From NCBI GenBank assembly GCA_040005235.1, contig JBDTZG010000003.1, forward strand, positions 1-64,000: 64,000 bases of DNA. Direction: 5' to 3'. This document shows positions 4,092-59,442 of this stretch, in pieces (the first letter of the stretch is position 1; each line of letters starts with the position of its first letter). A model generated the notes under the pieces. The model was not told where the DNA came from and searched no databases. It worked only from the letters and a program-made list of their open reading frames with translations. The position numbers were made by a program, and so were the translations under genes. Source of the DNA: Acidobacteriota bacterium. GTDB taxonomy: Bacteria > Acidobacteriota > Thermoanaerobaculia > Multivoradales > UBA5704.

Positions 4092-5095
4092 GCCACACCT
4101 TCGGCGACGGCCGGCGCGGCAGCGGGAACCTGCAGCTTGGGCAACGCCGCCTCGATCCGCGGCCGGGCGGCTTCCAGCCACGGCGGCAACTTGAGCGCCG
4201 AGCCGAGCGAGGCGAGCGGCTCGTCGAAGGTGAAGCCGGGCGGGTCGGTCGCCAGCTCGAACAGCACCCCGCCCGGCTCGCGGTAGTAGATCGAGTGGAA
4301 ATATTGGCGGTCCTGAACTGGGGTGACGTGGAGCCCGCGCTCGGCGAGATCGGCGAGCCAGGCGCGCTGCGCCGCGTCGTCTTCGACCCGGAACGCGACG
4401 TGGTGGACGGAGCCCGCGGCCACCCGGCCGTGACTGCCGGAGGGCTCTTCGAGCAGATCGATCTGCGCCCCCGCTCCGCCTGCTCCGATGGCGTAACGAG
4501 AGCGGTTTCCGCCGCCATCACCCTCACCGGCATCCCCTTCGCTCACCACCCGGTGAAAGCCCATGGCCTCGGTGAGCAGGCCGGTGGTCGGCCCAAGCGA
4601 CTTTTCGGTGAGGGTGACGGAGTGGAAGCCGCGGATCGCTGCGCGCTCCGGGATACCGCTTCCCGCCCACGGCGCGCGGTCCTCGGCGCCGGGGTGGGCG
4701 ATCAGCTCCAGCTTCATGCCGTCGGGATCGAACAGCGTGAGGACGCTTTCGCGCTCAAGCCGGTCGGCCGGTTCCGCGGCGAGGACGTTTTGGCCGGCCA
4801 GGCGATCGCGCCAGAAGCCGAGCGAACCCTCCGGCACCGAAAACGCCGTGGCGCTGGTCTGGCCGACGCCTCGGGTGCCGCGCACCGCGTGCGCCCAGGG
4901 GAAGAAGGTGAGGATGCTGCCCGGGGTCCCCGCCTCGTCGCCGTAGTAGAGATGGTAGGTGCCGGGGTCGTCGAAGTTGACCGTCCGCTTGACCAGCCGC
5001 AGGCCGAGCAGGCCGACGTAGAAATCGACGTTCGCTTGCGCGTCGCTCGCGATCGCCGTGACGTGATGGATGCCCTCGATCGGGGTTTTCGTCAT
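4088..5095 (-). CDS. Ring-cleaving dioxygenase (MhqO/glyoxalase family)
   Basis: GIHHVTAIA, KRTVNFDDPGTYHLYYGD, VHHVAFRV, DRQYFHSIYYREPGGVLFELATDPPGF. Confidence 0.95.
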   Translation of the reverse strand: MTKTPIEGIHHVTAIASDAQANVDFYVGLLGLRLVKRTVNFDDPGTYHLYYGDEAGTPGSILTFFPWAHAVRGTRGVGQTSATAFSVPEGSLGFWRDRLAGQNVLAAEPADRLERESVLTLFDPDGMKLELIAHPGAEDRAPWAGSGIPERAAIRGFHSVTLTEKSLGPTTGLLTEAMGFHRVVSEGDAGEGDGGGNRSRYAIGAGGAGAQIDLLEEPSGSHGRVAAGSVHHVAFRVEDDAAQRAWLADLAERGLHVTPVQDRQYFHSIYYREPGGVLFELATDPPGFTFDEPLASLGSALKLPPWLEAARPRIEAALPKLQVPAAAPAVAEGVA

Positions 5096-6384: not shown

Positions 6385-6834
6385 ATGTTCGACGGCTTCG
6401 CCCAACTCTTGACCCTGCTGATACCGGTCCTCGCCGTGATCGGCACGTTCGTCTTCCTGACGTTTTGGGTCATCACCCACCAGCGACGGCGCGAGCGGGA
6501 AGCGTACTACCGCTACGAGCTGGGCCGAAAAGCGGTCGAGAAAGGGTACGTGCCCGAAGACAAGCTGTTGGAGCTGCTCAACAACGAGCGGCGCAATCAG
6601 TGGCTGGGCCGGCGCGAGGGGGCTCGCCTGGCCGGGCTGATTCTGTTCGCTCTCGGTCTAGGCATGATGATCGCGCTCGGCAATCTGGACGACCACCTGG
6701 TCGGCCTCGGCGCGGTGCCGATGTTGCTGGGGCTCGCGCTGTTCGTCTACGGCCTGTTCTTCGCTCCGAAAGACGTCAAACCCGACCCCTCGGACGCTCC
6801 GGCCGCGCCCCACGAGTCGAGCCCAAGCGCTTGA
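6385..6834 (+). CDS. Membrane protein (DUF6249-like), divergent from the ECF sigma
   Basis: AAGGA RBS; TM helix, RRREREAYY...KAVEKG, then two TM helices. Confidence 0.75.
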   Translation: MFDGFAQLLTLLIPVLAVIGTFVFLTFWVITHQRRREREAYYRYELGRKAVEKGYVPEDKLLELLNNERRNQWLGRREGARLAGLILFALGLGMMIALGNLDDHLVGLGAVPMLLGLALFVYGLFFAPKDVKPDPSDAPAAPHESSPSA

Positions 6835-14599: not shown

Positions 14600-17296
14600 C
14601 TACTTGAATCGCCAAGTCAAGTACGCTCCTATGGTGATCAGAACCATGGCACCCAGCGTTGTAAGCAAAATACTGCATCCAAGCCCAAGCCTGGGCTTTT
14701 GCTGTCGTGGGGGCTCGGGATCTTTATGTGGGATTTTCATCGAAGTGGGTGCAGGAACGAGACCCGGTTCACCGTCAGCCCGTGGACCCGCAAATACGGC
14801 AGAGAGAGCCCATGACGAGGGAACTTCCTGACGAACGGGTATGACAAACGACGGGAGCTGGGGTAGATCCCTACCGGATTCCAGCTGATACCAATTAAGT
14901 ATGGCTACCACGCGAGCGAAGCGTGAAATGCTCTGAAGCGCGTCGAAATCCCGACAAATGGGTGCCGCGATCGGATTGAGGGAGTCATCAGACCGAAGCG
15001 TTGCCTCATACTCTTCCTCAAGCAGTCCTATAACTCGGCGTAGCTGGTCGCGCTGAGGCGAGGAGTCAGCGGGCGCGCTCGAATTACTCGTTAACCTCCG
15101 CTGTGCCTCAATCAGATAAGAGAGTTCTCCGAGCTTCGGGTTCCACCACGCAGGAGGTTTAGGCGAAAAAACCAGACGAACGCGAAGAAAACAATCCTTC
15201 GGTTGTGAAAACGGCTGAATCATGAGGCGTCCATGTTCACTCCAAACGTTTGCCTTGTCGTCATACCACTGGTAGGTTACAAAATCACACGCCTTGTCAG
15301 TTAGTAGAAATTCCTTGGGTACATCGTTGCCCTGTTCACATAATCTAGCCAGCAACATGTCAAGCCGCATCGCGTCGCGAGCGAGATAGGTTTGGGCGAT
15401 AGCCGGGTGGATTGCAAAGGTCCAGTGGTCGCTGAGAATCTTCGTCATACCCACCAGTCCTGCTGCGTTCTCAGGAATCGTTATATTTTCTCCACCTACC
15501 TGCACCGTCATTCCTTTGACGAAGTGGTATGCGGCCCACAGCTCGGTGAACGTAAGGTCCAAATAGTCCACCTGCTCACCTCCCGAAAGGAGTACTCGGA
15601 GCACTACCCCTTGAGGTTCTGAGCCCTCTTCAAGACCTGCCAGTGGTAGAAACTGGAGCTCAATCGGCTTAGCTCCACGATAGGTGTGATCGTTGCCGAG
15701 GATCACCCCACCGAAGATCGGTATCCTCATCATTCGCATGCTGCGAAATCTAGTTACAGATCGGGCCGAACCTTGAGGCCCGGCTCCGCTTCCGCGTGTT
15801 CCGGGAAGGTTGAGATCATTGCCCATCGAGCCTCCATGAGGCGCCCTTGGCCCGGCCGGCCTAGGAAGCGACAATCCGGGAGCGTCTGAACGAGGCCCAG
15901 GGCCTGCTCCTCCACGGTCCGACCCTTTCATATTCTCGTCGGCTCGTGCCTGCAGCTCGCGATATTGCCCGGTCCCCTTGGAGGAAGGGTCACGCTTCGG
16001 CCCAGCCTTATCCGGATGGATTGTCAATGGATCAAAATCACGTAACATCAAGGCCAGCGCCAGGTCTTGCTTGCGCTTCGGCTTCACCACTCTTAGCGCG
16101 CTATCGAGAACTTCAACTGATTTCATAGACCGCCGAAGCGTGTCTACTTCCTTGCGGCTGAGCACTCCGCGCGAAGCGAACTCCGCCAGAAACTCATCGC
16201 TCGGCCGCTGACCGAGACTATTCTGCAAGAGCGCTTTGTCTGCCGTCTTAGCCTGCGCCTTCTGGAGGATGCTACGGCTTAGAGCTTGATGGCGCAGCAT
16301 TTGTGACTCGATGAAAGAGCCGAGCCGCTCCCGGTGTTTGGCTTGCGAAGAAGCTCTCACACCGCTGAACGTTATATCGACACTCTCGCCACGACGGGAC
16401 CCGGTGACGAAAACATGGTCGGGGCCGAGTTCCGAGACCAATCGAAGTAGGACTTCTGGTGACGGATGATCATAACGGTTTGCCGCATTCGCCGTGATCA
16501 CCACATCGCGCAGACCCAGCGCCTTTCGTCGCGACAGGAGGGGCGAGAGGTCATTGTTCGCTGAGCCGTGATGCGAAGCTACCAGTACATCCAAGCGAGG
16601 CGGAGGAGTCTGCTCAGCCAAGGTCTTGATCAGAGCGCTCGAAGCGTCGTCCAAGTCGACTATGCGCGTGACCTTTCCTTGACCTGAAATCTCATACTGA
16701 GTCACGACGGATTGATCATGAACATTGGTTCCAATTGTGGTGGGGTCATAGACAAAGTTGGAGGCCTTTACGCTCCCCTTTCGACCTGAGATTTCCGAGA
16801 AAGCATCTCTTTTATTTGCAGAGGAGTACGAGACTTTCCGACCTACTCCCTCGCCATGCTTCTTTAGGTAGAGTTCGTAGAGAGAGGGCTTTCTGGTTGT
16901 TGTGGCATACTCGTTGTCTACGAAGATGATCTCAGTAAAATTCAGAATCTGTGGATCCTGCACAACCGCCTTTAGACCATCGAGATGATCCGAGTGGGGA
17001 TGAGAACATGTAATCACCAAGCGCTTGACCTTCTGGCCTTGCAGGTAAGACAGCACATCCTTGTTCTCGATTTCAGCACCCTGGATCCCTGCTACGCCGC
17101 CCTGCCCACCGTCGGTGATATATGCGGTCTTCGCTAGCCCATCAAGAATTAGACTTGCGGTACCGGCTCCCTCGATGGCAAGAAAGCGCGCGACCTGGCC
17201 GGATACTGAGAGCGCCCACACCGAGAGTAGAAGACCCAGAGTCGTCACTTTTGCACGGCGGCCTATCAGCAAAGCGAGATGAATAGCCATAGACAC
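14600..17296 (-). CDS. Large ComEC/Rec2-like metallo-beta-lactamase-fold protein with unknown C-terminal region and C-terminal TM anchor
   Basis: SHPHSDH, HHGS and YDHP motifs; signal-like N-terminus; visibly lower GC than the flanks. Confidence 0.8.
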   Translation of the reverse strand: MSMAIHLALLIGRRAKVTTLGLLLSVWALSVSGQVARFLAIEGAGTASLILDGLAKTAYITDGGQGGVAGIQGAEIENKDVLSYLQGQKVKRLVITCSHPHSDHLDGLKAVVQDPQILNFTEIIFVDNEYATTTRKPSLYELYLKKHGEGVGRKVSYSSANKRDAFSEISGRKGSVKASNFVYDPTTIGTNVHDQSVVTQYEISGQGKVTRIVDLDDASSALIKTLAEQTPPPRLDVLVASHHGSANNDLSPLLSRRKALGLRDVVITANAANRYDHPSPEVLLRLVSELGPDHVFVTGSRRGESVDITFSGVRASSQAKHRERLGSFIESQMLRHQALSRSILQKAQAKTADKALLQNSLGQRPSDEFLAEFASRGVLSRKEVDTLRRSMKSVEVLDSALRVVKPKRKQDLALALMLRDFDPLTIHPDKAGPKRDPSSKGTGQYRELQARADENMKGSDRGGAGPGPRSDAPGLSLPRPAGPRAPHGGSMGNDLNLPGTRGSGAGPQGSARSVTRFRSMRMMRIPIFGGVILGNDHTYRGAKPIELQFLPLAGLEEGSEPQGVVLRVLLSGGEQVDYLDLTFTELWAAYHFVKGMTVQVGGENITIPENAAGLVGMTKILSDHWTFAIHPAIAQTYLARDAMRLDMLLARLCEQGNDVPKEFLLTDKACDFVTYQWYDDKANVWSEHGRLMIQPFSQPKDCFLRVRLVFSPKPPAWWNPKLGELSYLIEAQRRLTSNSSAPADSSPQRDQLRRVIGLLEEEYEATLRSDDSLNPIAAPICRDFDALQSISRFARVVAILNWYQLESGRDLPQLPSFVIPVRQEVPSSWALSAVFAGPRADGEPGLVPAPTSMKIPHKDPEPPRQQKPRLGLGCSILLTTLGAMVLITIGAYLTWRFK

Positions 17297-17455
17297 CTAG
17301 TCAGGAGAACGCGGTTCCCCAAGCGATCTGCGAGAGGGCGATCCTCCTACTATATCTACAGACGGACCCGACGCCAGGATTCCGCAGTAGCTTAGCTAGG
17401 CCCGACGGAATAGGTGCGTAAATGGGTGGAATAGAATAGGTGCGGCCGGAATAGG

Positions 17456-18040
17456 GTAGAGTCGAAGGCGGGCGCGGTTGCTGTAGGTCGAGGGAGTCGC
17501 TGTTGACCGGCGGCTTTCGCTTGGATGCCGGTGCCTCAGTCTCGGCCGTAGCTCCGTTTCCCACCGCCGCTCATCGAACCGGAAGTGCGGATCTCCCGCA
17601 TCCGGCTCTCGGACGGACTTCACGAGAGAGCATGCACGATGCTCCTTGGCAGGCGCATCTGGCGGATGTCGAGCACTCCCACCTTTTCGCCGTACACCTC
17701 GCTGAATCCGAAGCGGCCGCTTCCGGGGGGAAGTTTGTGCCGACGACAGAGAAACCGCCGTACCCGTCCCGCGACGTGCCACCGGATAGCCGTATCGGCC
17801 TGCCCAGTGTGGCCAAAGCTGAAGTATCCGGCCCAGCCCTTCAGGAGCTGATTGAGCCGAGCTTGCAGCTCCGGCCAGGGCGTGGGGTTGCCCCGATAGA
17901 CCAGAGCGTTGATCTTTTCCTTGAGCCGCTTTTGGGCTTTCTTCGAGGGCCGGGCCGAGAGGAATCTCTTCCCGGTCAGCCCGTGCTTTGCCGGACCGAA
18001 GGTGTAGCCCAGGAAATCGAACGGCTCTTCGCGGGCCTGA
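17456..18040 (-). mobile_element. 5'-truncated group II intron (RT/maturase C-terminus plus ribozyme domains V and VI)
   Basis: Minus-strand DV GAGCCGGATGCGGGAGATCCGCACTTCCGGTTCGATGAGCGG (~17566-17608); 3' end ...CGACTCTAC at 17456. Confidence 0.92.
17620..18040 (-). pseudogene. ltrA: Group II intron reverse transcriptase/maturase, C-terminal fragment
   Basis: Manual translation: EPFDFLGYTFG...PSKKAQKRLKEKI...LNQLLKGWAGYF...RRFLCRRHK...VHALS*; no start codon and no YADD domain. Confidence 0.88.
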
Positions 18041-18063
18041 CTTCGGTCTGGACTAGCCCTACA

Positions 18064-18428: not shown

Positions 18429-18432
18429 GGGA

Positions 18433-19888
18433 ATAGGTGCCAGCCTATTGGAGACAAAGTCCGAACCTCGTGCGGCGAACGAGTGTCAGACGACCGCTCT
18501 CGGCCGAAATCTTCGGCCGACAGAGCGAGAGCAGCCGGCTTTTTGGAGGGAAACACTTCGGGATCGAAGCGCGCGGGGTCTCCGGAGCGACGAGCCAAAG
18601 CGTCGGAGCATCGATCCTCGGCCAGCGGAGCAGCCGGTTGGAACTTCGGGCGGGCTTCGTTCGGATTGACGGGCAGGCGGTGTTTACGTCGCCGGCCCAA
18701 TCGCCAACCGGCCCGCTCGGACAAACGGCAGACCGGGAGGGAAGCTACCCCGTGGAAACCGAGCGAGCCGATCGCCGGCCCGCAGATACTCGGCCGCCTC
18801 TCGGAAAGTCCGGACGAACCAGGCGTAGGCGATCTTCAGCTCGGTTCGCACCTTCTTGCTGGCGGCGTGGACCCGAGGTGCAGGTGACTTTTTAGTTTTC
18901 GCCGGCTGAGAAAACGGCTGCTGCCGGAGGATCGCGGCCGGGCCGAGTGGCTCGATTCCTGTCTCCACTTGCCGAGCGGCGGCCTTGGCGACAATCGCCT
19001 CGACCAACTCGGCGATCCGCGCGCGGTACGGCTCCCCCACCGGATCTCGCCAGCAAGGCAAGGGAGAGAGAGTCACGACCTCGGGGTCCGCGAACTGCCG
19101 AGCGCCGAATTCCTCGCCGCGCTGGCGCGCCTGCCATTCCTTGGTGCGACTGAACCAGGTTCCCTCGATCGGCTCGCCGGTGAGCAGCGCGGTGACGCAG
19201 TGGACCCCTGGCCATTCCTGCGGCCGGGCGACCAAGTTCTCCTTGCAGCCATGAGAGAGGATGTAGACCAGCCGCCCGACCTGGGCTTCTTCTTCGTCGC
19301 TCACCAGAATCGCCTGATAGCGGCGAGAGAAAACCTTGTCTCGCCAGCCGGTCGATCGGGCGACCTCGCGGGCGAGCTTCGAGTTGAAATAGCCCATGAA
19401 GCGCGCCAGGCGCTCACTGTCCTCGGCCCGCGCCAGAAGGTGAAAGTGGTTCGAGGCAAAGAAGAACGCGCAGATCTCCAGCGGGTAGAGGCGCTGTGCC
19501 CGGCCGAGGGCTCCGACGATCACCTCGTTGAGCAGCGGTCCCGGCCGAAGAAGGAATCGGCTGTGGACCGTGCGGCAGGTGACCTCGTAGAGGGCTCCCC
19601 CATCGGGCGTGAATCGTAGCTTCCTGGCCATTTCGGCATCCGGCATTTCAAATGGCCTGCCACGCGGAGCGCGGCGAGCTAAGCTACAGAAACCGTGCGG
19701 CTTGTGCGCAACGCCGTGAATCCCGGGAGCGGCTCGACCCCGCAAAAGAACTTGCGGGGTGGCCGGTCCAATCTCAGGGAAAGCTCTGATTTTGCGGAGT
19801 TTACCGCGTGTCAAAAGATCTTGACAGGCGCGCAATCTCTTGCGTGGACGCAGTGCGGGGCTGCGCAGCAGGTTAGGGTGGCACCTAT
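18433..19888 (-). mobile_element. RAYT-like HUH transposase element bounded by 15-bp imperfect inverted motifs
   Basis: ATAGGTGCCAGCCTA (18433-18447) and TAGGGTGGCACCTAT (19874-19888), one mismatch, enclosing the transposase. Confidence 0.75.
18684..19631 (-). CDS. REP-associated tyrosine (Y1/HUH) transposase, RAYT-like
   Basis: MARKLR...YEVTCRT, SNHFHLL (HUH), VFSRRYQAILV, YILSHGCKENLV...EWPG. Confidence 0.9.
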   Translation of the reverse strand: MARKLRFTPDGGALYEVTCRTVHSRFLLRPGPLLNEVIVGALGRAQRLYPLEICAFFFASNHFHLLARAEDSERLARFMGYFNSKLAREVARSTGWRDKVFSRRYQAILVSDEEEAQVGRLVYILSHGCKENLVARPQEWPGVHCVTALLTGEPIEGTWFSRTKEWQARQRGEEFGARQFADPEVVTLSPLPCWRDPVGEPYRARIAELVEAIVAKAAARQVETGIEPLGPAAILRQQPFSQPAKTKKSPAPRVHAASKKVRTELKIAYAWFVRTFREAAEYLRAGDRLARFPRGSFPPGLPFVRAGRLAIGPAT

Positions 19889-20167
19889 CCCCCCCGAGCG
19901 GCACCTATCCCCCCCGAGCAGATCCTCGTACGACGAACGAGGACGAAACGGCAGACCCCCAGCTGAAGGCGGCAGTCAGAAGGACTCACCTGCTGGGTGC
20001 AGCGGAGTCAAAGGCGCGGCGAGCTGCGGGCTCGGGCGATCGGCCCGCTTCCATCCGGCGCGGAATCAAATACGCTACTCTTAAGGCTGGAATAGAGATG
20101 TCTTGGATCGGGTCCGAATTTACGGACACCGGATGACCACTCGGGTCGACCCTGGCGAAGGAGAACC

Positions 20168-20377
20168 ATGCTCAAGAGGCGCAAGAGGTTACTCAGTCTT
20201 TCAAAAGAGACGTTGGTAGCGCTCCATCCCATTGCAGGTGAGGATACCGTAGCAGCCGGGACGGCCGGGACGTCCGCCGATATGACCTGCAACACCACGC
20301 TTTGCACGCAGCCGGGATTTGGTTGCGGTTCCGGCCAGCCCTGCGTTCCGACGGGCGGGAGGCATTGCACCTTCTGA
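20168..20377 (+). CDS. Putative RiPP (class I lanthipeptide-like) precursor 1
   Basis: GAAGGAG RBS; leader KRLLSLSKETLVAL; Thr/Cys-rich core with 5 Cys. Confidence 0.75.
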   Translation: MLKRRKRLLSLSKETLVALHPIAGEDTVAAGTAGTSADMTCNTTLCTQPGFGCGSGQPCVPTGGRHCTF

Positions 20378-20493
20378 GAAGCTGCAAGAGGTCCAGCTCG
20401 CGGGCAAAGGTGCGGTAAATACCGCACCCTCGCCTTCGTTCGAGGCTGGAGGAGCACCGCGAAGAAACTCCAAGGGCGGGCGACCCGGCGGAA

Positions 20494-20823
20494 ATAGGTG
20501 CCGAGGGTCCAACCCGAGGACGAGACCGCGCCCGGCCGGGAACGGCATTTTGCAGAGCGGGTTGTTAGCTGGCCTTCAGCGGGAATCACGCCGAGCCCGG
20601 AGCCTGTGGGGCCTTTGGAACGTCGGAACTGAAGTGTCGGAATGTAGTTCCGCAGCGACCAGGCCAAGCGGTCGTAATTATCTCAAGCCTTTTGGGTTTG
20701 AGCGGCTGACCGCCCTGGCCTACGTGGCCGGGTTGGTCGCCAACCGACCCGCTCGGACAAACAGCAATTCGGGAGGGAAGCTCCCGCGGGGAAACCGACC
20801 CCGGAATAGGTGCCACCCTAACC
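20494..20823 (-). mobile_element. Degenerate fragment of the RAYT 3' end and flank
   Basis: CGCCAACCGACCCGCTCGGACAAAC...GGGAGGGAAGCTCCCGCGGGGAAACCGA matches 18703-18762; motif copies at ~20494 and 20806. Confidence 0.7.
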
Positions 20824-20890
20824 GAAAGCGGCCTGTCCATCAACGCAGCCAGCTTGACGCCACCCCCTTGGCTGTGTATTGATACACAAC

Positions 20891-21078
20891 ATGCGGAGTA
20901 CCGAGGTGGTCAAGCGGCTTGAGGCCGACGGTTGGGTTTGCGTCGGCGGCAAGGGCGACCACCGGAAGTTCAAGCACCCGACTAAACCGGCCACGTCACC
21001 GTGCCTCACCCGCGAAGGGACATCGCGATCGGCACGTTGCGCAATATCTTCCGGCAGGCCGGCTGGGAATGGAGTTGA
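20891..21078 (+). pseudogene. hicA: HicA toxin, frameshifted
   Basis: MRSTEVVKRLEADGW...KGDHRKFKHPTKP then a 1-nt deletion (~20989), continuing HVTVPHPRRDIAIGTLRNIFRQAGW. Confidence 0.85.
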
Positions 21079-21081
21079 GCG

Positions 21082-21474
21082 ATGCTGTATCCGGTATACG
21101 TACACAAGGATCCTGACAGTGCCTATGGGATGACCTTCCCGGATTTTCCAGGGTGCTTCTCGGCAGCCGACGACCTCGGGGAGGTCTCACGCCTGGCACA
21201 GGAAGCAGTCGAGGTGCATTTCGAAGGCGAGAACCTGGCGATCCCGTCCCCCACGCCGATTGAGAAACTCGCGGTAGATCCCAACTATGGGGGCGGCTTT
21301 TGGCTCCTGCTCGACGTCGATCTGTCCAAGGTGAACACCAAGAGCGTGCGCCTCAACATCTCACTGCCGGCAAACTTGGTCGGCCAGATCGACCACTACG
21401 CGGCCGAGCATCACATGACTCGAAGCGGGTTCCTGGCCAAAGCCGCGCTTCAGGCGATCGGCAACGGGACATAG
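21082..21474 (+). CDS. hicB: HicB antitoxin
   Basis: YPVYVHKDPDSAYGMTFPDFPGCFSA...RLNISLP...TRSGFLA (RHH). Confidence 0.92.
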   Translation: MLYPVYVHKDPDSAYGMTFPDFPGCFSAADDLGEVSRLAQEAVEVHFEGENLAIPSPTPIEKLAVDPNYGGGFWLLLDVDLSKVNTKSVRLNISLPANLVGQIDHYAAEHHMTRSGFLAKAALQAIGNGT

Positions 21475-21506
21475 GCGCACGTCGAGCTTCGGGCGGCCTA
21501 CTGCCC

Positions 21507-21758
21507 TTAGGCGCGAGCACGTCTTGCGGGACGGCGGGTCAAGAGCGCGGTCTTTTCCCCCACTTCCAGCAGGTAGAGAAGGGCCTCATTGACCGCTTCA
21601 GAAGTGGGAAAAGCCTGCGCCACCCGAGGTTCCAGAACCACGATGTTCGATCCCTGCTTCAGCCTCTCCGCATATTTCCCGCGCACCAGCTCGCCGAAGT
21701 CGGAACGTTTGTACTCCGGCCGGAGCTCGTCGTCAAACCCCACATCATCCTTCTTCAT
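21507..21758 (-). CDS. BrnA-like antitoxin
   Basis: DELRPEY...VRGKYA...VVLEPRVAQAFPTSEAVNEAL; overlaps brnT. Confidence 0.8.
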   Translation of the reverse strand: MKKDDVGFDDELRPEYKRSDFGELVRGKYAERLKQGSNIVVLEPRVAQAFPTSEAVNEALLYLLEVGEKTALLTRRPARRARA

Positions 21759-22017
21759 AGAGCTTCCTTTCAGGACGGGTTGCCTTTCGAGCACTAATGA
21801 TCCGAAGACAGTCAGCGCTCTCCGTGTGAGAAACCGCCAATAACCGGCCGGCAGCCGACCGGCCCAAGACGACGTATCGGTTCTCGAGCACCGAGTGATC
21901 CGGATCGTGGCCCGTAACAGAGAGCGCATCGTAAAACACCGTCGAGGCCTCCTCGAACGAGACGCTGTGCTTTCGCAGGTTGTGCTCCGCCTTGGCGCGA
22001 TCCCATTGAAATTGCAT
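21745..22017 (-). CDS. brnT: BrnT family toxin
   Basis: FQWDRAKAEHNLRKHSVSFEEASTVF...RIISARKAT. Confidence 0.92.
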   Translation of the reverse strand: MQFQWDRAKAEHNLRKHSVSFEEASTVFYDALSVTGHDPDHSVLENRYVVLGRSAAGRLLAVSHTESADCLRIISARKATRPERKLYEEG

Positions 22018-22269
22018 CGCCGGTCATTGTAGCTCCTCCCCCCGCCCCTTCACTCGTACCGCAACACCTCGATCTCGGGTCCAACCCCGCCGTCCACCGC
22101 GCCCCGGAATAGGTGCCCCCGAAATAGGTGCCAGCCTAACCTGAGGATGAGACCGATTCTCGTGCGGCGAAACGGGATCGGAGCGACCACTCCGGCCGAA
22201 ATCGGCAGTCGGCGGGGCGAGTTGCAACCGGCCTTCGCCGGGAATCACGCCGAATTCGAAGCCTGTGTA

Positions 22270-22362
22270 GCCATCGGAGGCCCACTGCCGAAGATCCTCC
22301 GAGTTGATCACTTCGACATTCAGAATCTCGTCTCGCCGCTTCTCCAGCGTCGATAGCTTCAT
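22270..22362 (-). pseudogene. Internally deleted minimal nucleotidyltransferase remnant
   Basis: MKLSTLEKRRDEIL fused directly to VEVINSEDLRQW, then RAYT-flank sequence. Confidence 0.35.
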
Positions 22363-22952
22363 GCCACCGGTCCCACGACTCTGTTCACCAACCGTTCGAA
22401 CTCGGGAATTCTCTCGGGCGCATCCAGAATCTGTGCGAACTCATGGACGAAAGCGCGCACTCTTTCCAGATCGATGCGGTCCGCGTGCAACGTGAGGAGC
22501 TGCTCGATGTCGTATCGGTCCCGATCTCTCCAGGCAAGAACCTTGTAGATGACCAGGTCTTCAGGAGCGGCGACCGAAATCTTGATTCCCCCGAACTTCA
22601 CCTCGACCGCTTGCGCCAGGGCCTCCTGCTCAAAGGAGGTATAGGCGAAGCTGATTTCCAAGGTTACTTTCGTCTTATCGTGCACGAGCAAGAGAACTTG
22701 GCTTTTCTTGGCGAACTCCAAGCAATCGGGGATCCGCGGACGAATCGATCCCTCTGCCAAGGTCTTAAGGAAACTGGAAGTGTCGAGGTGAGCCGCAAGA
22801 ACCGTGGCGTCGATGTCGATGGTCTGGCGCGCCACTCCGTGGGCGATGACCGCAATTCCTCCGATCACCATGCTCGGGGAGTCGATCCGCCCGAGAGCCT
22901 TCGCCAAGTCGGCGAGAGCCTCCAGGATTTTCTTACTTGGCCGCTTGGCCAT
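22359..22952 (-). CDS. Nucleotidyltransferase (DUF6036/AbiEii-like)
   Basis: MVIGGIAVIAHGVARQTIDID, APEDLVIYKVLAWRDRDRYDI. Confidence 0.85.
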   Translation of the reverse strand: MAKRPSKKILEALADLAKALGRIDSPSMVIGGIAVIAHGVARQTIDIDATVLAAHLDTSSFLKTLAEGSIRPRIPDCLEFAKKSQVLLLVHDKTKVTLEISFAYTSFEQEALAQAVEVKFGGIKISVAAPEDLVIYKVLAWRDRDRYDIEQLLTLHADRIDLERVRAFVHEFAQILDAPERIPEFERLVNRVVGPVA

Positions 22953-23220
22953 GGGCCACATAGTAACTGCGGACACGAACCCAGCAGTTCCGAGCGTGCT
23001 CGGCGTCACGACGGCGAACATCGTTTTCGGGAGGAGGCCAGCCGTGCATCGTGCCGAACAGGTCCATCAGCTCCAAGGCACCTCGGACGGAGACGGCCGA
23101 ATCAGGCCCCGCTTGGCGGCGCTCCTCTCGCTCTTGGACTTCCACGGCCTGCCACCCGGCGACCATCCGGTGCAGGCTCCCAGGAAGATCTGTAGTTTTG
23201 GAGGGCCGGACGGTCTTCAT
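22933..23220 (-). CDS. Small partner (putative antitoxin) of the nucleotidyltransferase
   Basis: 95-aa ORF overlapping the NTase start; duplicated at 29150-29437. Confidence 0.65.
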   Translation of the reverse strand: MKTVRPSKTTDLPGSLHRMVAGWQAVEVQEREERRQAGPDSAVSVRGALELMDLFGTMHGWPPPENDVRRRDAEHARNCWVRVRSYYVAHGQAAK

Positions 23221-23278
23221 CGCGAAAGCCTAGCATGGGCTTTTGCTTCGGACCCCGGGAACGTGTCCCGCGGGCGCG

Positions 23279-23488
23279 CTATGCCGCCTGGCCGGTCCCT
23301 CTTCGGGGCGGGCGTGGAGGGTTCCGCATTGGGATTCTTCCAGCGGCCGCCTCGCGAGCGCGCAGTTGCTCGCCCAAGGCATGAAGGTCCCCACCGACAG
23401 CTTCGACGATCCGTGCGCGTGCGGCACGGACCTCGGAGACGATTGGATCAACCCACGGGGTTTGCGAATCTTCAAGGGGCATCGACAT
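23279..23488 (-). CDS. Small antitoxin-like protein
   Basis: WVDPIVSEVRAARARI...GGDL motif, typical of partners of PIN toxins; GGAGA upstream. Confidence 0.6.
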   Translation of the reverse strand: MSMPLEDSQTPWVDPIVSEVRAARARIVEAVGGDLHALGEQLRAREAAAGRIPMRNPPRPPRRGTGQAA

Positions 23489-23890
23489 ACTAGGATTCTC
23501 CCATCAGTTCGTCGGGAGTACACTGAATCGGCGGCTCGTAACCTGCCCCCCGACACGCAGCTTCGACGAGAGGGCGCCTTTTCAGAGGGGAAGACTTTGC
23601 GAGCGCCGCATCCTGGTAGGGGCTGGAGCTGCTACGAACGAAACCGCTTGATCAGGTCTTCAAAGTCCTGCAGGAGTAGTCTCCTGTTCAAGGACCGTGT
23701 CGATCCGTTAACCGCGCGCCTGAACCGCGAGGATCACGCAGGCCGCCCCGGGGTTGGCCCAAGGCCTCGTCCCTCGCGCCTCACCGGATTTCCGGATCGC
23801 GTGTCGGATTCGGCCGCCGCGGCGATCGCTTTGCCGAACCCTTCCTTCGATTTCCGGACGCGGCCGATCGAACCTCCGTGTGCGCAGATC

Positions 23891-24226
23891 GAATTTCTAG
23901 CTCCGATGACCGTTCCGCTGAGTAAACGGAGGGATCTTCTGCTTCAAATGACCCCTCCGCTACCCTGGGGGAACCCTCTTTCTTCCAAAAAGACCCTTAC
24001 GCTGGTCCAGCGTAGGGGTCTTTTTCTTCGCAAGACGCCCACGCCGGACCGGCGGGATGGTCTTTTCTCCGCAAAGACTGCTGCGCCGGACCTGCGGAAC
24101 GGTCTTTTAGGCGAAAAGACCCAGCCTTCAAGGAAGAGGACGGATCTTTTTCTGTGAAAAACCTCTCCCCCCAACCTCTGGAACGGTCTTTCTTCCTCGA
24201 AATCCCCTTCGCGGAGGCGGCGCAAC
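23891..24226. repeat. 42-bp periodic degenerate array (~8 units), core GGTCTTTT-N6-AAAGAC
   Basis: Unit starts at 23891, 23933, 23975, 24017, 24059, 24101, 24143 and 24185. Confidence 0.85.
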
Positions 24227-24271
24227 GAACTGGAGCGGCGATATTCTCCCCCTTCGTCCAAGGAGAATGTC

Positions 24272-24652
24272 ATGGCAGACCGGTCGTACGGGGGAAAGCT
24301 TGTCCGGTGGCAAACGATGGCGCACAACATCGAGGATTCCGTACCGCTGATCCCTGGCGCGGACGGCCCGATGGCCGAGCTTCGCGAGAAACTTGCCGAG
24401 CTGAGCAAGACTCACGGGACTCTGGTGGAGATGGAAGGCCGAAAGAAGGAGCTGGTGCAGCTCCGCAGGCGCCTCGATCAAGAAACCCAGGAGGTCGTGA
24501 GGCGTCTCGCCTCGGCCGCTCGGGCTCATTTCGGATTCAAAAGCCCGCAGCTCGAAACTTTCGGCGTCCCGGCGGAGATCTTCAGCCGGCGCAAAAACCA
24601 CGGGAAGAGAGGGCCGGCGCGAAAGAAACCGAGCCCCGAGTCGCAGGACTGA
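24272..24652 (+). CDS. Small helical hypothetical protein with basic tail
   Basis: AAGGAG RBS; coiled-coil-like, ARAHFGFKSPQLETFGV motif, K/R-rich C-terminus. Confidence 0.8.
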   Translation: MADRSYGGKLVRWQTMAHNIEDSVPLIPGADGPMAELREKLAELSKTHGTLVEMEGRKKELVQLRRRLDQETQEVVRRLASAARAHFGFKSPQLETFGVPAEIFSRRKNHGKRGPARKKPSPESQD

Positions 24653-24953
24653 TGCAGCCTGCTTGACGCCTCGGAGGCCGCAGGGGGTTCTCAGCTTTGC
24701 CGACGCGATCTCCAAAGGCCGGATTTCCCGGAAACCCCGAGCGAGCACCCGATGGCGACCAGTCCGGCGTTTCGCAAGGCCGTGCCGAGAGTCTGCAATA
24801 GGTCCGGCACGGGCAGCAGCGCCAAGAGAAAATTGAGTCCCAGCCCGGCAAGGAAAAGGACCGCGGTCCATCGCGGCACGGCTTTGGGCCTGGAGGGTGG
24901 CGATGCCTCGCCGGAGCCGCGGTATCCTCTCGCCCGGAGGGGAGGTTCCAGGC

Positions 24954-25754
24954 ATGAGCGTCGGCAGCACAATGGTTCGGGGGGCGGAGATCCGTTTTCA
25001 AGAGGCGGCGGAAGAGCTGCGGCCGTGGGTCGGCTGCTTCTGGGTGATCACCGCGGACCGGGACGCCGTCCTTCGGCTCGTTCCCGATGGGAGCACCACG
25101 ATCTCCGCTCAGGTGCGGGACGGGGAAGCTCCCGTCTGGGTCTTGCGGGGCCCCGTACTGAGGCCCGACGAGCGCCGCTTCGAGATGCCGGCGACGGTGG
25201 TGGGGATCCGGTTGCGGCCGGGGGTCGCCTTCCTTTTGACGGGCATCTTGATGGAGACGCTGGTCGATCGGCGGCTCGATCTTTCGGGCCTCGAATCCTT
25301 TCGGGATCTCGTCGCCGCCGAGCCTCCACCGCGCACGCCCTCGGAGCACATCGCGTCGCTCGAAAGGTTTCTGATTGCGCGGCTCGGACATGCCGCCGTC
25401 CATCCGGTCGTCGCGTCCGTCCTCGCCGAGCTCGAGCGCAGCCGCGGAGGTCTGCGGGCATCCGAGCTGGCCGCCCATGGCGGCGTGAGCCCTCGGCAGC
25501 TGAATCGGCTGATGCGCCGGTGGGTGGGCTTCGGCTCCAAACAGCTTGCGAACATCGTTCGCTTCCAGGCGACGCTTCACGAGATGGAACAGCCGGCCCA
25601 ACCTCCCCTGGCTTCGCTTGCGGCGGAGAACGGGTATTACGATCAGTCCCACCTTACGCACGACGCCGTCCGGTTCTCGGGAACCACGCCGGGCGATCTC
25701 CTGCCGCGCGCGATGTCCGATTTTTCCAAGACCCGTTGCGACCAGCTCCTCTAG
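24954..25754 (+). CDS. AraC-family regulator (DUF6597 N-terminus)
   Basis: LRPWVGCFW, VPDG, SPRQLNRL...GYYDQSHL. Confidence 0.88.
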   Translation: MSVGSTMVRGAEIRFQEAAEELRPWVGCFWVITADRDAVLRLVPDGSTTISAQVRDGEAPVWVLRGPVLRPDERRFEMPATVVGIRLRPGVAFLLTGILMETLVDRRLDLSGLESFRDLVAAEPPPRTPSEHIASLERFLIARLGHAAVHPVVASVLAELERSRGGLRASELAAHGGVSPRQLNRLMRRWVGFGSKQLANIVRFQATLHEMEQPAQPPLASLAAENGYYDQSHLTHDAVRFSGTTPGDLLPRAMSDFSKTRCDQLL

Positions 25755-25829
25755 AGTAGGGCCTCAGTTGGCGCCCGGCCGCCGCGGAGCGGCGGCCCTT
25801 TAGGCCTCAAGGCTCAGGAGCCCTACCCC

Positions 25830-26216
25830 ATGTGGAAGCATGTCGCTGGCGTGTTCGTCGGATTGCTGGTTTGGATCGCCGTCGCCCTGGTGGCGGGCGT
25901 TCTATTGCGGTGGTTCTGGCCCGAATACGTCGCCGCCTCGGGGGCCATGGCGTTCACATTGCCAATGATGCTCACGCGGCTTTCGATCGGTGCCCTGGCG
26001 ACGATCGCGGCCGGAGCATTGGCCGCCCGCCTTGGGCAATCGAACCGAGCGGCGATTTTCCTCGGCGCGGTCCTGCTCGTGATCTTTGTCCCTATGCACG
26101 TCCATCTTTGGGACAAGTTTCCCCCCTGGTATCACCTGACGTTTCTCGCGTCGCTCGTTCCGCTTGCCGTCTTCGGGGGGAGGATGGCGCAACGAGGGCC
26201 GAAGCGAGGCGCATAG
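25830..26216 (+). CDS. Hypothetical membrane protein
   Basis: AGGAG RBS; 4 TM helices, FPPWYHL. Confidence 0.75.
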   Translation: MWKHVAGVFVGLLVWIAVALVAGVLLRWFWPEYVAASGAMAFTLPMMLTRLSIGALATIAAGALAARLGQSNRAAIFLGAVLLVIFVPMHVHLWDKFPPWYHLTFLASLVPLAVFGGRMAQRGPKRGA

Positions 26217-26482
26217 CTGAAAGGGTCAATCAACTCGGCGATCCGCTCGCGGTATTGCTCCTCCGGCAGATGTCGCCAACACGGCAAACGCGCGAGGTTG
26301 ACGACCTCGGTGTCCGCGAACTGCCGAGCGCCGAACTCCTCGCCGCGCTGGCGCGCTTCCCATTCCCTGGTGCGATCGAACCAGGTTCCCTCGATCGGCT
26401 CGCCGGTGAGGAGAGCACTGACGCAGTGAACCCCCGGCCAGTCCTGAGGCTGGGCGACCAGGTTCTCTTTGCAGCCATGAGA
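26217..26482 (-). pseudogene. Internal RAYT fragment
   Basis: SHGCKENLVAQPQDWPGVH...YRERIAELI, closely similar to 18684-19631. Confidence 0.88.
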
Positions 26483-26758
26483 AATCTGTCGTTTTGAACA
26501 GCGGGCCTCGGCGCTACGTAACCGGCGCAATCGCCATCCGTGGATGCGTAGAGTTCCGGCCGATCAGGCCTGGGGGCTGCGCTTCGACGCTCCGGCGACC
26601 CCAAGGGATCCTCTCGGCATAAATCCCCGCCGAGCCGAATGACTGGCTGCGCCGTACTCAAGTTGGCTGCTTCCTGCGGCCGCGACCGGCCCTGTCGACC
26701 CGAGTCGCCACTCTTGGGCCGCGCCGGGGGATCGCGTGGCTTCTCTAAGAGGGTGGTA

Positions 26759-26855
26759 CCTATCCAGGCCTGGCGAGGCCGTGCCCGGCGAACTGGCGCC
26801 TCCGCCGGTCCTATCCTGGCGAGGCCGTGCCCGGCGAACTGGCGCCTCCGCCGGT
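26759..26855. repeat. ~46-50-bp tandem duplication starting at a motif copy
   Basis: CCTATCC(AGGCC)TGGCGAGGCCGTGCCCGGCGAACTGGCGCCTCCGCCGGT twice. Confidence 0.85.
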
Positions 26856-26974
26856 CTGAAACAGAGGAGCAGCCTACCGCCAGGGAGGTCAGTCGGCGTC
26901 ACTAAGGACAGGACAATGGCCGCAACCCGGAGGCAGCGGAACTGTCTCCGCAGCCTCCGCTTTTCCTGCTCCAG

Positions 26975-27157
26975 CTAGCAGGTGGTGTCGCACGTTTCAC
27001 AGCTCTCGCAGGAGATGCAGGCGGAGCAGTCGGAGGGACACGTATTTATACAATTCGTCCGGAAGCTGAGACCGCCATCGACCCTCTTCTGATCGTCTCT
27101 GGACAAATCGCGCACGGTCTCTCTGCTGAGCTTGAGTTTCGCAAGTCGCTTCTTCAT
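26975..27157 (-). CDS. Putative lanthipeptide-like precursor 2
   Basis: AAAGGAG RBS; MKKRLAKLKLSRETVRDL...VDGG / LSFRTNCINTCPSDCSACISCESCETCDTTC (8 Cys). Confidence 0.85.
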   Translation of the reverse strand: MKKRLAKLKLSRETVRDLSRDDQKRVDGGLSFRTNCINTCPSDCSACISCESCETCDTTC

Positions 27158-27339
27158 CGAACTCTCCTTTGCTACGGCGTTTTTGTTGATGACGCTTATT
27201 TATCTTAACAGCGACCTCTCGCTTGGCTCAAGTAGCGCCTCATGAAGAGGGTGGCACCTATAGCCAGGGGATGGAAAGGCGGCGAGCTGACCTACACCTG
27301 CACCCCGCCGAGCTCCGCAGGCGCGGACTTTGACGAGGC

Positions 27340-27470
27340 CCTGCCGCCCTGCTCACCGGCCAGCCGATCGAGGGAACCTGGTTCGATCGAACGAAGGAGT
27401 GGGAAGCGCGCGAGCGCGGCGACGAGGTGGGTGCCCGGCAATTCACAGAAACAGAGGTCGTGGACCTCGC
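27340..27470 (+). pseudogene. Internal RAYT fragment, opposite orientation
   Basis: GCCCTGCTCACCGGCCAGCCGATCGAGGGAACCTGGTTCGATCGAACG encodes ALLTGQPIEGTWFDRTKEWEAR. Confidence 0.8.
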
Positions 27471-27737
27471 CCCCCGGCTTGCCTCAGCTATCCTGCGAAC
27501 GTGGAATCTCGTGCGACGCGGTCGCTTGGCGTGGGACGCCCGCCCGTGATCAGGAGATCGGCGAGCGCTGCGTAGATCGGGAGCCCTGCCCGCTTGGCTA
27601 CCCCGGCCGAATAGGTGCCAGCCTAACCTGAGGGCGCAGCCGCCGCGCGGCGGAAGCTTCACTTGAGCCGACCAACGGTTCCGGCCGGCTCAAAGCCGCA
27701 TTTTCGGATGCTTCGGCTACTTCCCGGTCCGCCTGAC

Positions 27738-27905
27738 CTAGCAGATGTCGCTGCAAGTGGTGTTGCAGGAAGGGTCCGAACAGAACTCTGTGCTGTTCGT
27801 ACACTTCAGGGTCGCTCCGCCCACCGCCTTCAGTATCTCGCGGTTGGTTAACTGGCTGATGGTCTCCTGGCTTAGGTTGAGCTTCTTCTTAGCCTTGGCT
27901 TTCAT
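27738..27905 (-). CDS. Putative lanthipeptide-like precursor 3
   Basis: GAGGAG RBS; MKAKAKKKLNLSQETISQL...AVGG / ATLKCTNSTEFCSDPSCNTTCSDIC (5 Cys). Confidence 0.85.
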   Translation of the reverse strand: MKAKAKKKLNLSQETISQLTNREILKAVGGATLKCTNSTEFCSDPSCNTTCSDIC

Positions 27906-28050
27906 CGGAAGGTTCTCCTCGGCAGAGCCGGCCCCATCGCCGGTCCATATCAATCAAGGTGAGGCTATCTGGCTTTTCCGCGCCTCTCCGGGAAGAAGTG
28001 TCGGAAGGTAGAACCGCAGCCACCAGGCCAGGCGGTCGTAATGATCTGCT

Positions 28051-28540
28051 CGGAATAGGTGCCAGCCTATTGGAGACAAAGTCCGAACCGCGTGCGGCGA
28101 ACGAGAGTCAGACGACCGCTCTCGGCCGGAATCTTCGGCCGGCAGAGCGAGTTGAAGCCGGCTTTTCGGTGGAAATCACTTCGGGATCGAAGCGCGCGGG
28201 TCTTCGGAGCGACGAGCCAAAGCGTCGGAGCAACGATCCTCGGTCGGCGGAGCAACCAATTGGAACTTCGGGCGTGCTTCCTTCGGATTGACGGGCAGGC
28301 GGTATTTACGTCGCCGACCCAATCGCCAACCGGCCCGCTCGGACAAACGGCAGACCGGGAGGGAAGCTCCCGCGGGGAAACCGAGCCAGCCGTTCGCCGG
28401 CCTTCAGGTACTCCGGCGCTTCCCTGAAGGCCCTCACAAACCAGCGGTAGGCGACCTTGATCTCGGTCCGGTCCGAACCCGCTTGCTGGCGGCGTGGACC
28501 CGCGGCGCAGGTGACTTCTTGGTCTTCGCCGGCTGAGGAA
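28051..28540 (-). mobile_element. Second copy of the RAYT 3' end and flank (truncated)
   Basis: Closely similar to ~18429-18908, including the motif and the C-terminal ARFPRGSFPPGLPFVRAGRLAIG. Confidence 0.9.
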
Positions 28541-28611
28541 GGGTGCCAGTCCAACCCGAGGGCTCGATTTCTGTTTGTCTCCCAGCGAGCCCGGCGTACA
28601 ATTACCCCACT

Positions 28612-28848
28612 ATGAGCCAACCGCTAAGAGTCCCTCCGGGGTTCGACGACTTGCCGATCGGCGAGCAGATCGACTATGTCCAGGCTCTGTGGGGTCGGAT
28701 CGCCCAACGTGAGGATCAGATTCCCGTGCCAGACTGGCACCGAGAGGTGATCGCAGAGCAGCTCGAAGAATACCGAGCGGATCCCGAAGCCGGGCGCCCG
28801 TGGGAAGAGATCGAAGCAGAGCTGCAGCGGATCGACCCCGTCCGCTGA
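28612..28848 (+). CDS. Addiction-module antitoxin (TIGR02574-like)
   Basis: LPIGEQIDYVQALW...PDWHREVI...GRPWEEI. Confidence 0.85.
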   Translation: MSQPLRVPPGFDDLPIGEQIDYVQALWGRIAQREDQIPVPDWHREVIAEQLEEYRADPEAGRPWEEIEAELQRIDPVR

Positions 28849-29084: not shown

Positions 29085-29475
29085 CCGCATCGATCTGGAA
29101 AGAGTGCGCGCTTTCGTCCATGAGTTCGCACAGAGCCTCCAGGATCTTCTTACTTGGCCTCTTGGCCATGGGCCACATAGTAACTTCGGACACGAACCCA
29201 GCAGTTCCGAGCGAGCTCGGCGTCACGACGGCGAACATCGTTTTCGGGAGGAGGCCAGCCGTGCATCGTGCCGAACAGGTCCATCAGCTCCAAGGCACCT
29301 CGGACGGAGACGGCCGAATCAGGCCCCGCTTGGCGGCGCTCCTCTCGCTCTTGGACTTCCACGGCCTGCCACCCGGCGACCATCCGGTGCAGGCTCCCAG
29401 GAAGATCTGTAGTTTTGGAGGGCCGGACGGTCTTCATCGCGAAAGCCTAGCATGGGCTTGCTTCGGACCCCGGGA
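29085..29475 (-). repeat. Rearranged duplicate of the NTase/partner locus
   Basis: 29132-29475 nearly identical to ~22915-23261; 29085-29134 is the reverse complement of ~22430-22479. Confidence 0.9.
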
Positions 29476-29649
29476 ATAGGTGGTGCAGTCACCTGCACGA
29501 AAATACTCGGCCACCTCTCGGAAAGTCCGGACGAACCAGGTGTAGGCGATCTTCAGCTCCGGCGAGGAGAGCGGTGACGCAGTGGACCCCTGGCCCGCGT
29601 TAGGTGCTGCCCAGCCAGGTCCATTCGCGGCCCAACCGGACCCGAAGGG

Positions 29650-31305: not shown

Positions 31306-31378
31306 AGCCTGCTCGAATAAGGGGTTTACCGCGGAGCTGCGCCGCAGGTTTGGGTGGCACCTCTCTGCAAGCGCATGA

Positions 31379-48968: not shown

Positions 48969-49186
48969 CGCGCTATCTGAGCTAGAGGCGGGGTGAGGTT
49001 GGCGAGCTCGGCGCAGCTCGCGGCGTGATCCTTCGCGGGCCAGCAGGACACCTACCTGAACGTCGTCGGGTCGGCGGCGATCCTTGAACACGTCAGCTGC
49101 TCTAACTCCGGGTTCAGGTTTGACCGACGCGCTCCCGATTGCACATCATGCGCTCCTGACCCAGCTTGGCCCCGAGGAGTCCCTCC

Positions 49187-55190: not shown

Positions 55191-55400
55191 ATGAAGCGCA
55201 AGCTCCAACTCCATCGTGACACGATCGTTCGCCTCACTCCCGTCGAGATTGAAGCCGCCCACGGCGGTCAGTTCGTCACCGTGACCCAGGATCGGAGCTG
55301 CCAGATCGGCTCCTGCGCTTGCAGCCAGCAAACCTGCGGCATCAGCTGCGGCGGAACCTGTTTCCAGCACACCTGCGTCGCTTACATCTGCAACCTCTAG
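55191..55400 (+). CDS. Putative lanthipeptide-like precursor 4
   Basis: AAGGA RBS; MKRKLQLHRDTIVRL...AHGG / core with 8 Cys and many Ser/Thr. Confidence 0.82.
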   Translation: MKRKLQLHRDTIVRLTPVEIEAAHGGQFVTVTQDRSCQIGSCACSQQTCGISCGGTCFQHTCVAYICNL

Positions 55401-59104: not shown

Positions 59105-59106
59105 GA

Positions 59107-59442
59107 TCAAGCCTCGCTGAGCTGGACGACGCGTGAAATGGCCGACGAGAGCCGCTCCCAGTTGGCGGTCTCCGATTCGAGCTGGTTTCGGCCCAGGCGG
59201 GTGAGCGAATAGAACTTCGCCCGCCGGTTGTTTTCCGTCTGCTTCCATTCTGCGGTGATCCAGCCCTCCTGTTCCAACTTATGGAGCGCCGGGTAGAGGG
59301 AGCCTTCGCTCACCTGGAGTACATCGTTGGAAATAGAGCGCAGGCGCAGACCGATGGCCCACCCATGCATAGGTTCGAGCGCCAGGATTTTCAGCAGCAG
59401 CAGATCGAGGGTACCGAGGACAAGGTCGTTGGGCTTACTCAT
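59107..59442 (-). CDS. PadR-family regulator (acidobacterial type)
   Basis: GTLDLLLLK, GSLYPALHKLE, ENNRRAKFYSLT. Confidence 0.93.
   Translation of the reverse strand: MSKPNDLVLGTLDLLLLKILALEPMHGWAIGLRLRSISNDVLQVSEGSLYPALHKLEQEGWITAEWKQTENNRRAKFYSLTRLGRNQLESETANWERLSSAISRVVQLSEA

Follow-up and report, generated by a model that had tools for sequence, protein, structure and literature searches.

The window analysed here, a 64,000-nt stretch of an acidobacterial genome (G000; other G-numbers denote related genomes), carries between 18.4 and 31.4 kb an island in which copies of a transposable element are interspersed with small genes, three of which encode putative precursors of RiPPs (peptides that are ribosomally synthesized and then modified after translation). 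The island is flanked by a xanthine-dehydrogenase-like operon on the left and by malate-synthase-like/YkuD genes on the right. One copy of the element is intact, eight or more others are truncated or reduced to a solo end, and the ends number roughly one per kb. Between the ends lie, from left to right, precursor 1, element debris, hicAB with a BrnT-family pair, a 4.6-kb stretch holding an AbiEii toxin gene, an AraC-type regulator, and a transposase fragment, then precursor 2, another transposase fragment, and precursor 3, to the right of which is further element debris with an antitoxin gene of the addiction-module type. An earlier, sequence-only reading of this DNA had each of the three precursors bracketed by the end motif of a transposase element. 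The motif ATAGGTGCCACCCTAACC occurs without mismatches at 19871-19888 (-) and 20806-20823 (+), forming a perfect 18-bp inverted pair around precursor 1; the form (T/G)AAGAGGGTGG(T/C)ACCTAT lies on the minus strand at 26746-26763 and 27244-27261, either side of precursor 2; and ATAGGTGCCAGCCTA lies on the plus strand at 27611 and 28055, either side of precursor 3. The 18-mer is present in six copies in the window at up to three mismatches (0.01 expected from 100 shuffles), and its 9-mer core ATAGGTGCC in ten copies (0.14 expected), all within 18433-28063. All three pairs are therefore where that reading had placed them, far above chance expectation, and precursor 4, at about 55 kb, has no motif copy or element DNA within 25 kb, again as it had noted.

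The motif is the terminal inverted repeat (TIR), about 18 bp long, of a 1.46-kb TIRtron-type element with a Y1/HUH tyrosine transposase (TIRYT); that it marks a transposase element's end, as had been proposed, is borne out by inverted copies flanking the transposase gene here and in relatives. The transposase open reading frame (ORF; 18684-19904, -) has a Met near 19655 as its probable start, which gives a protein of 323 amino acids (aa). It matches Pfam Y1_Tnp at E 1e-4 (22.8 bits, cutoff 23) and NCBIfam REP_Tyr_transpos, the repetitive extragenic palindromic (REP)-associated tyrosine transposase family, at E 7e-10 (39 bits, cutoff 80); a search against the sequences of solved structures gave 0 matches at E up to 1. 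The HUH motif (N-H-F-H; H70 and H72) and Y131 are invariant in six aligned homologs, down to 56% identity, and the tyrosine has the context Y-[ILV]-L-S-H-G in all six. Inverted ends also flank homologous transposase genes in L002, L005, and L012 (congeners and a same-order relative at 56% protein identity), the family is multi-copy in 29 of the 31 related genomes searched, and transposase-family matches number 27 in G000 and 1-37 in each of seven congeners. By reading, the end is a small palindrome (TAGG, 6-nt loop, CCTA); when six end regions were folded as DNA, z-scores of -0.2 to -2.5 were obtained, not significantly better than shuffles. Tandem duplications that take in the outer 9-10 bp of the end (ATAGGTGCC) and a further 3-11 bp of flank, in units of 12, 13, 15, and 20 bp, were seen at 19880-19919 and 22100-22141 of the window and at 4629-4672, 6450-6493, and 11105-11146 of L013 (C35), and may be the footprint of cleavage just after GGTGCC.

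In the 2013 TIRtron description (PMC3733652), a long Y1/HUH transposase gene has inverted repeats on either side in place of REP hairpins, the same ends are also found singly, as dimers, and in clusters, and a sharply defined acidobacterial TIRYT group is recognized; Quentin et al. 2018 (PMC6006769) equate TIRYT with TnpA_Y1 subclass 2.1. The element of the island shares with TIRtrons, as that text describes them, a Y1 gene with HUH and Tyr, inverted-repeat ends instead of REP hairpins, the occurrence of solo, dimeric, and clustered ends, and an acidobacterial host, in a comparison based on the text description. It departs from the same description in being multi-copy with many decayed copies (27 in G000, up to 37 in congeners), and the reverse complement of its end fits at best six of the eight positions of the GGGGWSAS motif, which the source reports for some TIRs, not all. 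Transposases of TnpA_REP class 2 have Y---NP by the criterion given in PMC6006769, whereas Y-x-L-S-H-G is found here, and the REP-associated tyrosine transposases (RAYTs) of that class are of low copy number and go with GTAG-tagged REPs, whereas the present gene is multi-copy and flanked by TIRs. A typical RAYT was accordingly rejected (no Y---NP, not single-copy, no GTAG REPs), as was an IS200/IS605 element, in which a Y1 transposase of about 150 aa goes with subterminal hairpins and no inverted-repeat ends, as against 323 aa and 18-bp inverted repeats here. A likeness to REP/REPIN-RAYT systems (Bertels and Rainey 2011, PMC3116915, PMC3337134) is that a short, partly palindromic repeat flanks a Y1 transposase gene in inverted orientation; in those systems the RAYT is typically single-copy with REPINs in the hundreds, whereas here a decaying multi-copy gene goes with about 30 repeats per genome in few islands.

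The precursors have K-rich leaders with LxLxxET...GG and cores rich in Cys, Ser, and Thr, and their genes are scattered away from those for LanB and LanC. A leader profile built from 29 pattern-picked ORFs of G000 and run on the same genome identified 39 precursor-like ORFs at E < 0.1, all of which were kept. Against the curated leader families NF038153 and NF038158 (cutoffs 27 and 22 bits), precursor 2 scored 20.3/20.1, precursor 3 18.3, and precursor 4 19.2 bits, all below cutoff, and precursor 1 gave no match. The genome encodes one LanB (C66:136849-138846), three LanCs (C8:30078, C35:41631, and C115:1847), and one C39-peptidase transporter; two of the LanC genes adjoin precursors, and three precursors are adjacent to a LanC gene. 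With leaders scoring just under the class I lanthipeptide cutoffs and both LanB and LanC encoded, the identification of these genes as RiPP precursors is well founded, and their most likely role, judging from sequence, is that of class I lanthipeptide substrates, the majority of them orphan. Leader and cores resemble those of the orphan class I precursors covered by the two families (LxLxKx5L...GG leader), the difference being scores just below the curated cutoffs. One cluster, at C35 40922-45238 (L014 2923-7239), is strain-specific, with no DNA-level match in seven congeners, and comprises two precursors, a LanC, and a permease of the MacB/FtsX type. A MacB-type permease is also encoded near precursor 4 (56408-59248). 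At about 1589 of L020 (G001:C16), the leader-core junction (…GGAT…) of some precursors has GGTGCCACC-like coding DNA similar to the core of the element end, a likeness that is probably a codon coincidence.

From the bracketing, the sequence-only reading had gone on to propose that single precursor genes are mobilised as cassettes. The orientation of the ends speaks against this. Those pointing rightward into an element body lie at 18433, 20494, 20806, 22109, 22124, 27611, 28055, and 28539, and those pointing leftward at 19871, 26746, 27244, and 31347. The ends at 19871 (-) and 20494/20806 (+) both point away from precursor 1, which therefore lies outside both elements. The ends beside precursor 2 (26746 and 27244, both -) and those beside precursor 3 (27611 and 28055, both +) have the same direction and belong to different truncated copies, and no cryptic inverted partner end was found inside the precursor segments at up to six mismatches (background 0.43 per kb). 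Second copies of the segments were sought in G000 and seven congeners: the unique DNA of segment 2 gave 0 matches at E 0.01, that of segment 1 only matches of 26-47 bp, and segment 3 only a 53-bp piece of the element and, at 69-76%, the leaders of paralogous precursors. No motif was found within about 1.5 kb of the three paralogs or orthologs of precursor 3 that were scanned (C113, G001:C16, and G003:C17). When the segments of precursor 2, precursor 3, and a further bracketed precursor at 46.5 kb of C35 were aligned, similarity was confined to the ends. A short end-bounded unit in G004 (L002 2741-3653), considered as a cargo carrier, is an internally deleted transposase copy with no cargo. Contigs of four public runs (X1-X4) were compared with 19800-28100, and no joints were found at cassette boundaries, with X1 and X2, possibly the samples from which the genome came, covering the whole stretch; the joints 20625>27995, 22172/22176>27998, and 22279>28011 link element-body pieces and fit other copies of the element. 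Run X4 has a 237-bp contig over precursor 2, and X3 has no contig cover over the three precursors, though absent cover proves nothing. Other cargo also occupies the intervals between ends: HicAB, BrnT, AbiEii, and an addiction-module antitoxin in the window; YafQ, UPF0175, and two PIN-type genes (one a weak match, E 6e-4) in the piles on C35; and HicAB, PIN, a VapB-like gene, a GGDEF-TPR gene, and a KAS-III-like gene in congeners. The orientation of the ends, the copy number and dissimilarity of the segments, this other cargo, and the comparative data thus lend no support to the mobilisation of single precursors as cassettes.

Bracketing as such is unsurprising, because with about 13 full or partial end copies in 13 kb anything inside the island sits between two. 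Element similarity at the DNA or protein level is limited in G000 to C18 18-30 kb, C35 0-12 kb, C35 40-48 kb, and tiny pieces on C4, C8, C24, C26, and C45, and transposase fragments to the three C18/C35 zones and two tiny matches on C8 and C26. Most of the pieces consist of 40-700 bp of body attached to an L-end (the one that lies downstream of the transposase stop codon), and the N-terminal 120 residues are absent from 23 of 27 non-master tblastn transposase pieces; solo ends lie at 20806, 27244, and 31347 in the window and also on C4, C8, and C100. In congeners, the left flank of the island adjoins element arrays in G002:C103, G004:C152, and G001:C79, and its right flank is recognisable in G002:C59 and G004:C48; shared flanks with element arrays in several congeners indicate that the pile-up site is old. 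The fetched stretches of G002:C103, G004:C152/C48, and G001:C79 and the G004:C108 array contain no precursors at E < 0.01. The only segment conserved between the genomes is the repeat and hicAB unit from 20801, found at 87-95% in G004:C108, G002:C103, G002:C59, and G006:C154. We consider it probable that the bracketing is a by-product of element pile-up in a plasticity zone. The region from 18.4 to 31.4 kb is a long-standing site at which copies of the TIRtron-type element accumulate and decay, with strain-specific accessory genes between the remnants, among them toxin-antitoxin modules and three orphan members of the lanthipeptide-type precursor family of 39, for which LanB and LanC are encoded elsewhere in the genome. 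Each precursor would then be bracketed because the ends are dense and the genes tiny, by ends from different remnants that delimit no transposable unit. Arrival and turnover of precursors may reflect gene flux of an ordinary kind in a zone prone to recombination, the repeated pieces of the element perhaps providing the homology anchors there.

Several observations weigh against so plain an account. Six of the 39 precursors in G000 lie within 1 kb of an end or transposase fragment, where 0.40 are expected; 2000 random placements averaged 0.40, gave 4 at most, and never reached six. In a control with PIN-domain genes of the same genome, only 1 of 55 lay within 1 kb (Fisher p 0.019 versus the precursors). 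In G002, the island on C59 holds two precursors, both different from those here, and one of them is the ortholog of precursor 4, which in G000 sits outside the island. The LanC cluster at 40.9-45.2 kb of C35 is flanked by transposase fragments of the same direction, and two unrelated segments, those of precursor 3 (427 bp) and of C35 46520-46672 (about 430 bp), are alike in layout: an end, 110-162 bp, an antiparallel gene, 101-150 bp, and the next end in the same direction.

The six close precursors are the three in the window and those at 40922, 41257, and 46520 of C35, two of which belong to the LanC cluster, so that about four loci are involved; the last (46520-46672) lies between two direct end copies 430 bp apart and is a fourth bracketed precursor. 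Motif enrichment next to precursors outside the original three is therefore present in G000. For congeners, a 7-sequence leader profile was used with an E limit of 0.01, together with the exact 12-mer AGGTGCCASCCT; every row was kept, including a few in long open frames. The precursors within 1 kb of the 12-mer in the six genomes were 1/20, 2/42, 0/27, 0/45, 0/19, and 0/43, a total of 3/196 against a hand-estimated 0.78 (Poisson p 0.045 for three genes, 0.19 when counted as two loci). On these figures the link is real in this genome and weak in relatives, and what is observed is a G000-specific co-localisation of lanthipeptide genes with TIRtron pile-ups. Pure coincidence, with precursors and ends unrelated, would be favoured by the small number of loci, about four independent ones in two or three islands, and by congeners that barely replicate the signal, but with six observed against a maximum of four in random placements it appears very unlikely.

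A preference of the element for inserting near pre-existing small precursor genes, for example at adjacent hairpins or terminators, might also produce this pattern. Structured DNA is a frequent target of such elements, the end has the form of a small palindrome, and ends lie 73-291 bp from four of the precursors. This explanation is nevertheless improbable, as 33 of the 39 precursors are without nearby element DNA (none within 4 kb), element copies are also present at the island locus in congeners without precursors there, and the three scanned paralogs or orthologs of precursor 3 lack the motif within about 1.5 kb.

A different possibility is that the TIRYT enzyme, or recombination between ends, moves, duplicates, or exchanges precursors and whole lanthipeptide clusters, with the islands as a platform for diversification. 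It draws on the excess of close precursors over random placement and over the PIN-gene rate, the fourth bracketed precursor on C35, adjacent cases in G004:C53 and G002:C59, the different precursors held by the syntenic island in G000 and G002, and a bias of transposase fragments to the C-terminal part, as reported for picocyanobacteria (bioRxiv 10.1101/2020.03.09.984088). Traffic of this kind nonetheless seems unlikely on balance: no cassette turned up a second time, precursor 1 is outside both of its ends, the congeners show only the weak excess given above, and there is no common geometry, the precursor facing the nearest transposase fragment at two of four loci and at distances of 101-490 bp. 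No flank homology was found between precursor 4 and its G002 ortholog, which lies inside an element array; the coding sequence alone aligns.

The closest precedent comes from marine picocyanobacteria, in which some procA (prochlorosin) genes lie among RAYT-like Y1 genes (tnpA_REP), both full-length and as fragments biased to the C-terminal part, and a role of these in enlarging and diversifying the precursor set was proposed; in a later note the authors stated that they had found strong evidence neither for a causal link nor against one (Laurenceau et al., bioRxiv 10.1101/2020.03.09.984088), which tells against reading traffic into the present case. Both settings have many lanthipeptide precursors per genome, some of them among Y1 transposase genes or fragments. 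The present one differs in its phylum (Acidobacteriota), in precursors of class I type (LanB/LanC) rather than ProcM substrates, in the transposase group, and in the share of precursors involved (15% here, 1.5% in congeners), lacks a conserved facing orientation or fixed distance, and has clear inverted-repeat ends, none of which were found in the picocyanobacterial study. In the literature searches made, no report of such an association of precursors with transposases in Acidobacteriota came up. A causal link, if there were one, would explain the way in which bacteria with one promiscuous lanthipeptide machinery build up large strain-specific precursor repertoires, a question left open for prochlorosins. 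On present evidence, the region records the pile-up of TIRtrons in the genome of an uncultured soil acidobacterium, and lanthipeptide genes show a modest tendency, specific to this genome, to be located in such zones; this is a pointer for revisiting the picocyanobacterial hypothesis in a second phylum and not a new mechanism.

Integron cassette arrays consist of small, promoter-poor genes and toxin-antitoxin modules separated by repeated recombination sites, mostly in direct orientation. The island resembles them in its small genes and toxin-antitoxin modules between mostly direct repeats, and differs in that the repeats are transposon ends with transposase debris and the cassettes are not shared between genomes; neither an integron integrase nor attC was seen, though no search aimed at them was made. 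It is conceivable, though we regard it as very unlikely, that the L-ends arrayed in one direction form a gene-capture platform operated by the HUH/Y1 transposase, each L-end serving as a recombination site with small genes inserted or exchanged behind it. Such a platform would allow integron-like shuffling of the strain's peptide library (toxin-antitoxin pairs, precursors, and even a LanC cluster), and would be a second, independent link between a RAYT-like enzyme and lanthipeptide diversification, after that in picocyanobacteria.

Table. Features of the element island and the precursor genes in the window
Feature	Position	Strand	Details
Intact TIRtron-like element	18433..19888	-	1456 bp; L-end 18433-18450, transposase gene 18684-19655, R-end 19871-19888
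Tandem 20-bp duplication	19889..19919	-	outer 9 bp of end plus 11 bp of flank; second ATAGGTGCC at 19900-19908
Precursor 1, 69 aa	20168..20377	+	leader profile E 6.8e-8; outside R-end (left) and outside L-end fragment (right)
Truncated copy	20494..20801	+	degenerate L-end and about 300 bp of body, including last 26 transposase codons
Solo end repeat	20806..20823	+	directly upstream of hicAB
Toxin-antitoxin genes between ends	20879..22017	.	hicA (apparently frameshifted), hicB, ORF without family 21507-21764 (-), BrnT-family toxin 21745-22017 (-)
Truncated copy	22109..22262	+	partial end 22109, full L-end 22124-22141, about 140 bp of body
AbiEii/DUF6036 nucleotidyltransferase toxin gene	22359..23021	-	region partly duplicated at 29085-29476
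Transposase fragment, aa 133-219	26225..26485	-	
Solo L-end, sub-family end ...ACCCTCTT	26541..26763	-	recurs beside transposase 3' ends in G006
Precursor 2, 60 aa	26975..27157	-	leader profile E 4e-11
Solo end repeat, ACCCTCTTC variant	27244..27261	-	87 bp upstream of precursor 2
Inverted transposase fragment, aa 156-198	27346..27474	+	
L-end repeat and short diverged stub	27611..27628	+	110 bp from precursor 3 stop codon
Precursor 3, 55 aa	27738..27905	-	leader profile E 2e-11
Element-body piece, 53 bp	27995..28047	+	
Truncated copy	28055..28613	+	L-end and transposase 3' part; 87.6% identical to 18430-18913
Solo R-type end, 2 mismatches	31347..31364	-	right-most island copy
Precursor 4	55191..55400	+	G002 ortholog inside element array

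Other features of the island and its borders were recorded alongside. The hicA gene at 20879-21133 appears to be frameshifted, its Pfam match covering positions 3-33 of the 58 in the profile where the G002 and G004 orthologs match 2-58, and a related contig in run X3 has one extra base near 20986. Part of the AbiEii-adjacent region is duplicated inside the island (22430-23261 versus 29085-29476, 98-100% identical). Imperfect tandem units of about 50 bp (…GGTCTTTT…) at 23940-24200 lie upstream of an ORF at 24272-24652, and the whole unit recurs at C118 41498-42144 (75%) and in congeners. A two-copy tandem repeat with a unit of about 45-50 bp (26768-26857) adjoins the outer side of the end at 26746-26763. 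A repeat of about 590 bp, at 91% identity, borders both element piles (17435-18041 in the window; 48746-49331 and 47775-47917 on C35), and a Pfam scan of ORFs in the flanking repeats at 17.4-18.1 kb and 29.4-30.7 kb gave no family in the frames tested. The segment 29606-29886 belongs to a family of short repeats (60-290 bp) with copies on at least 18 contigs, some as inverted pairs, and looks like a miniature inverted-repeat transposable element or REP sequence. At the left edge of the island, 14600-17296 encodes a protein of 898 aa with an N-terminal MBL-fold/ComEC-like region, single in the genome, with weak NCBIfam matches to the anti-phage proteins Avs1a and 6A-MBL.

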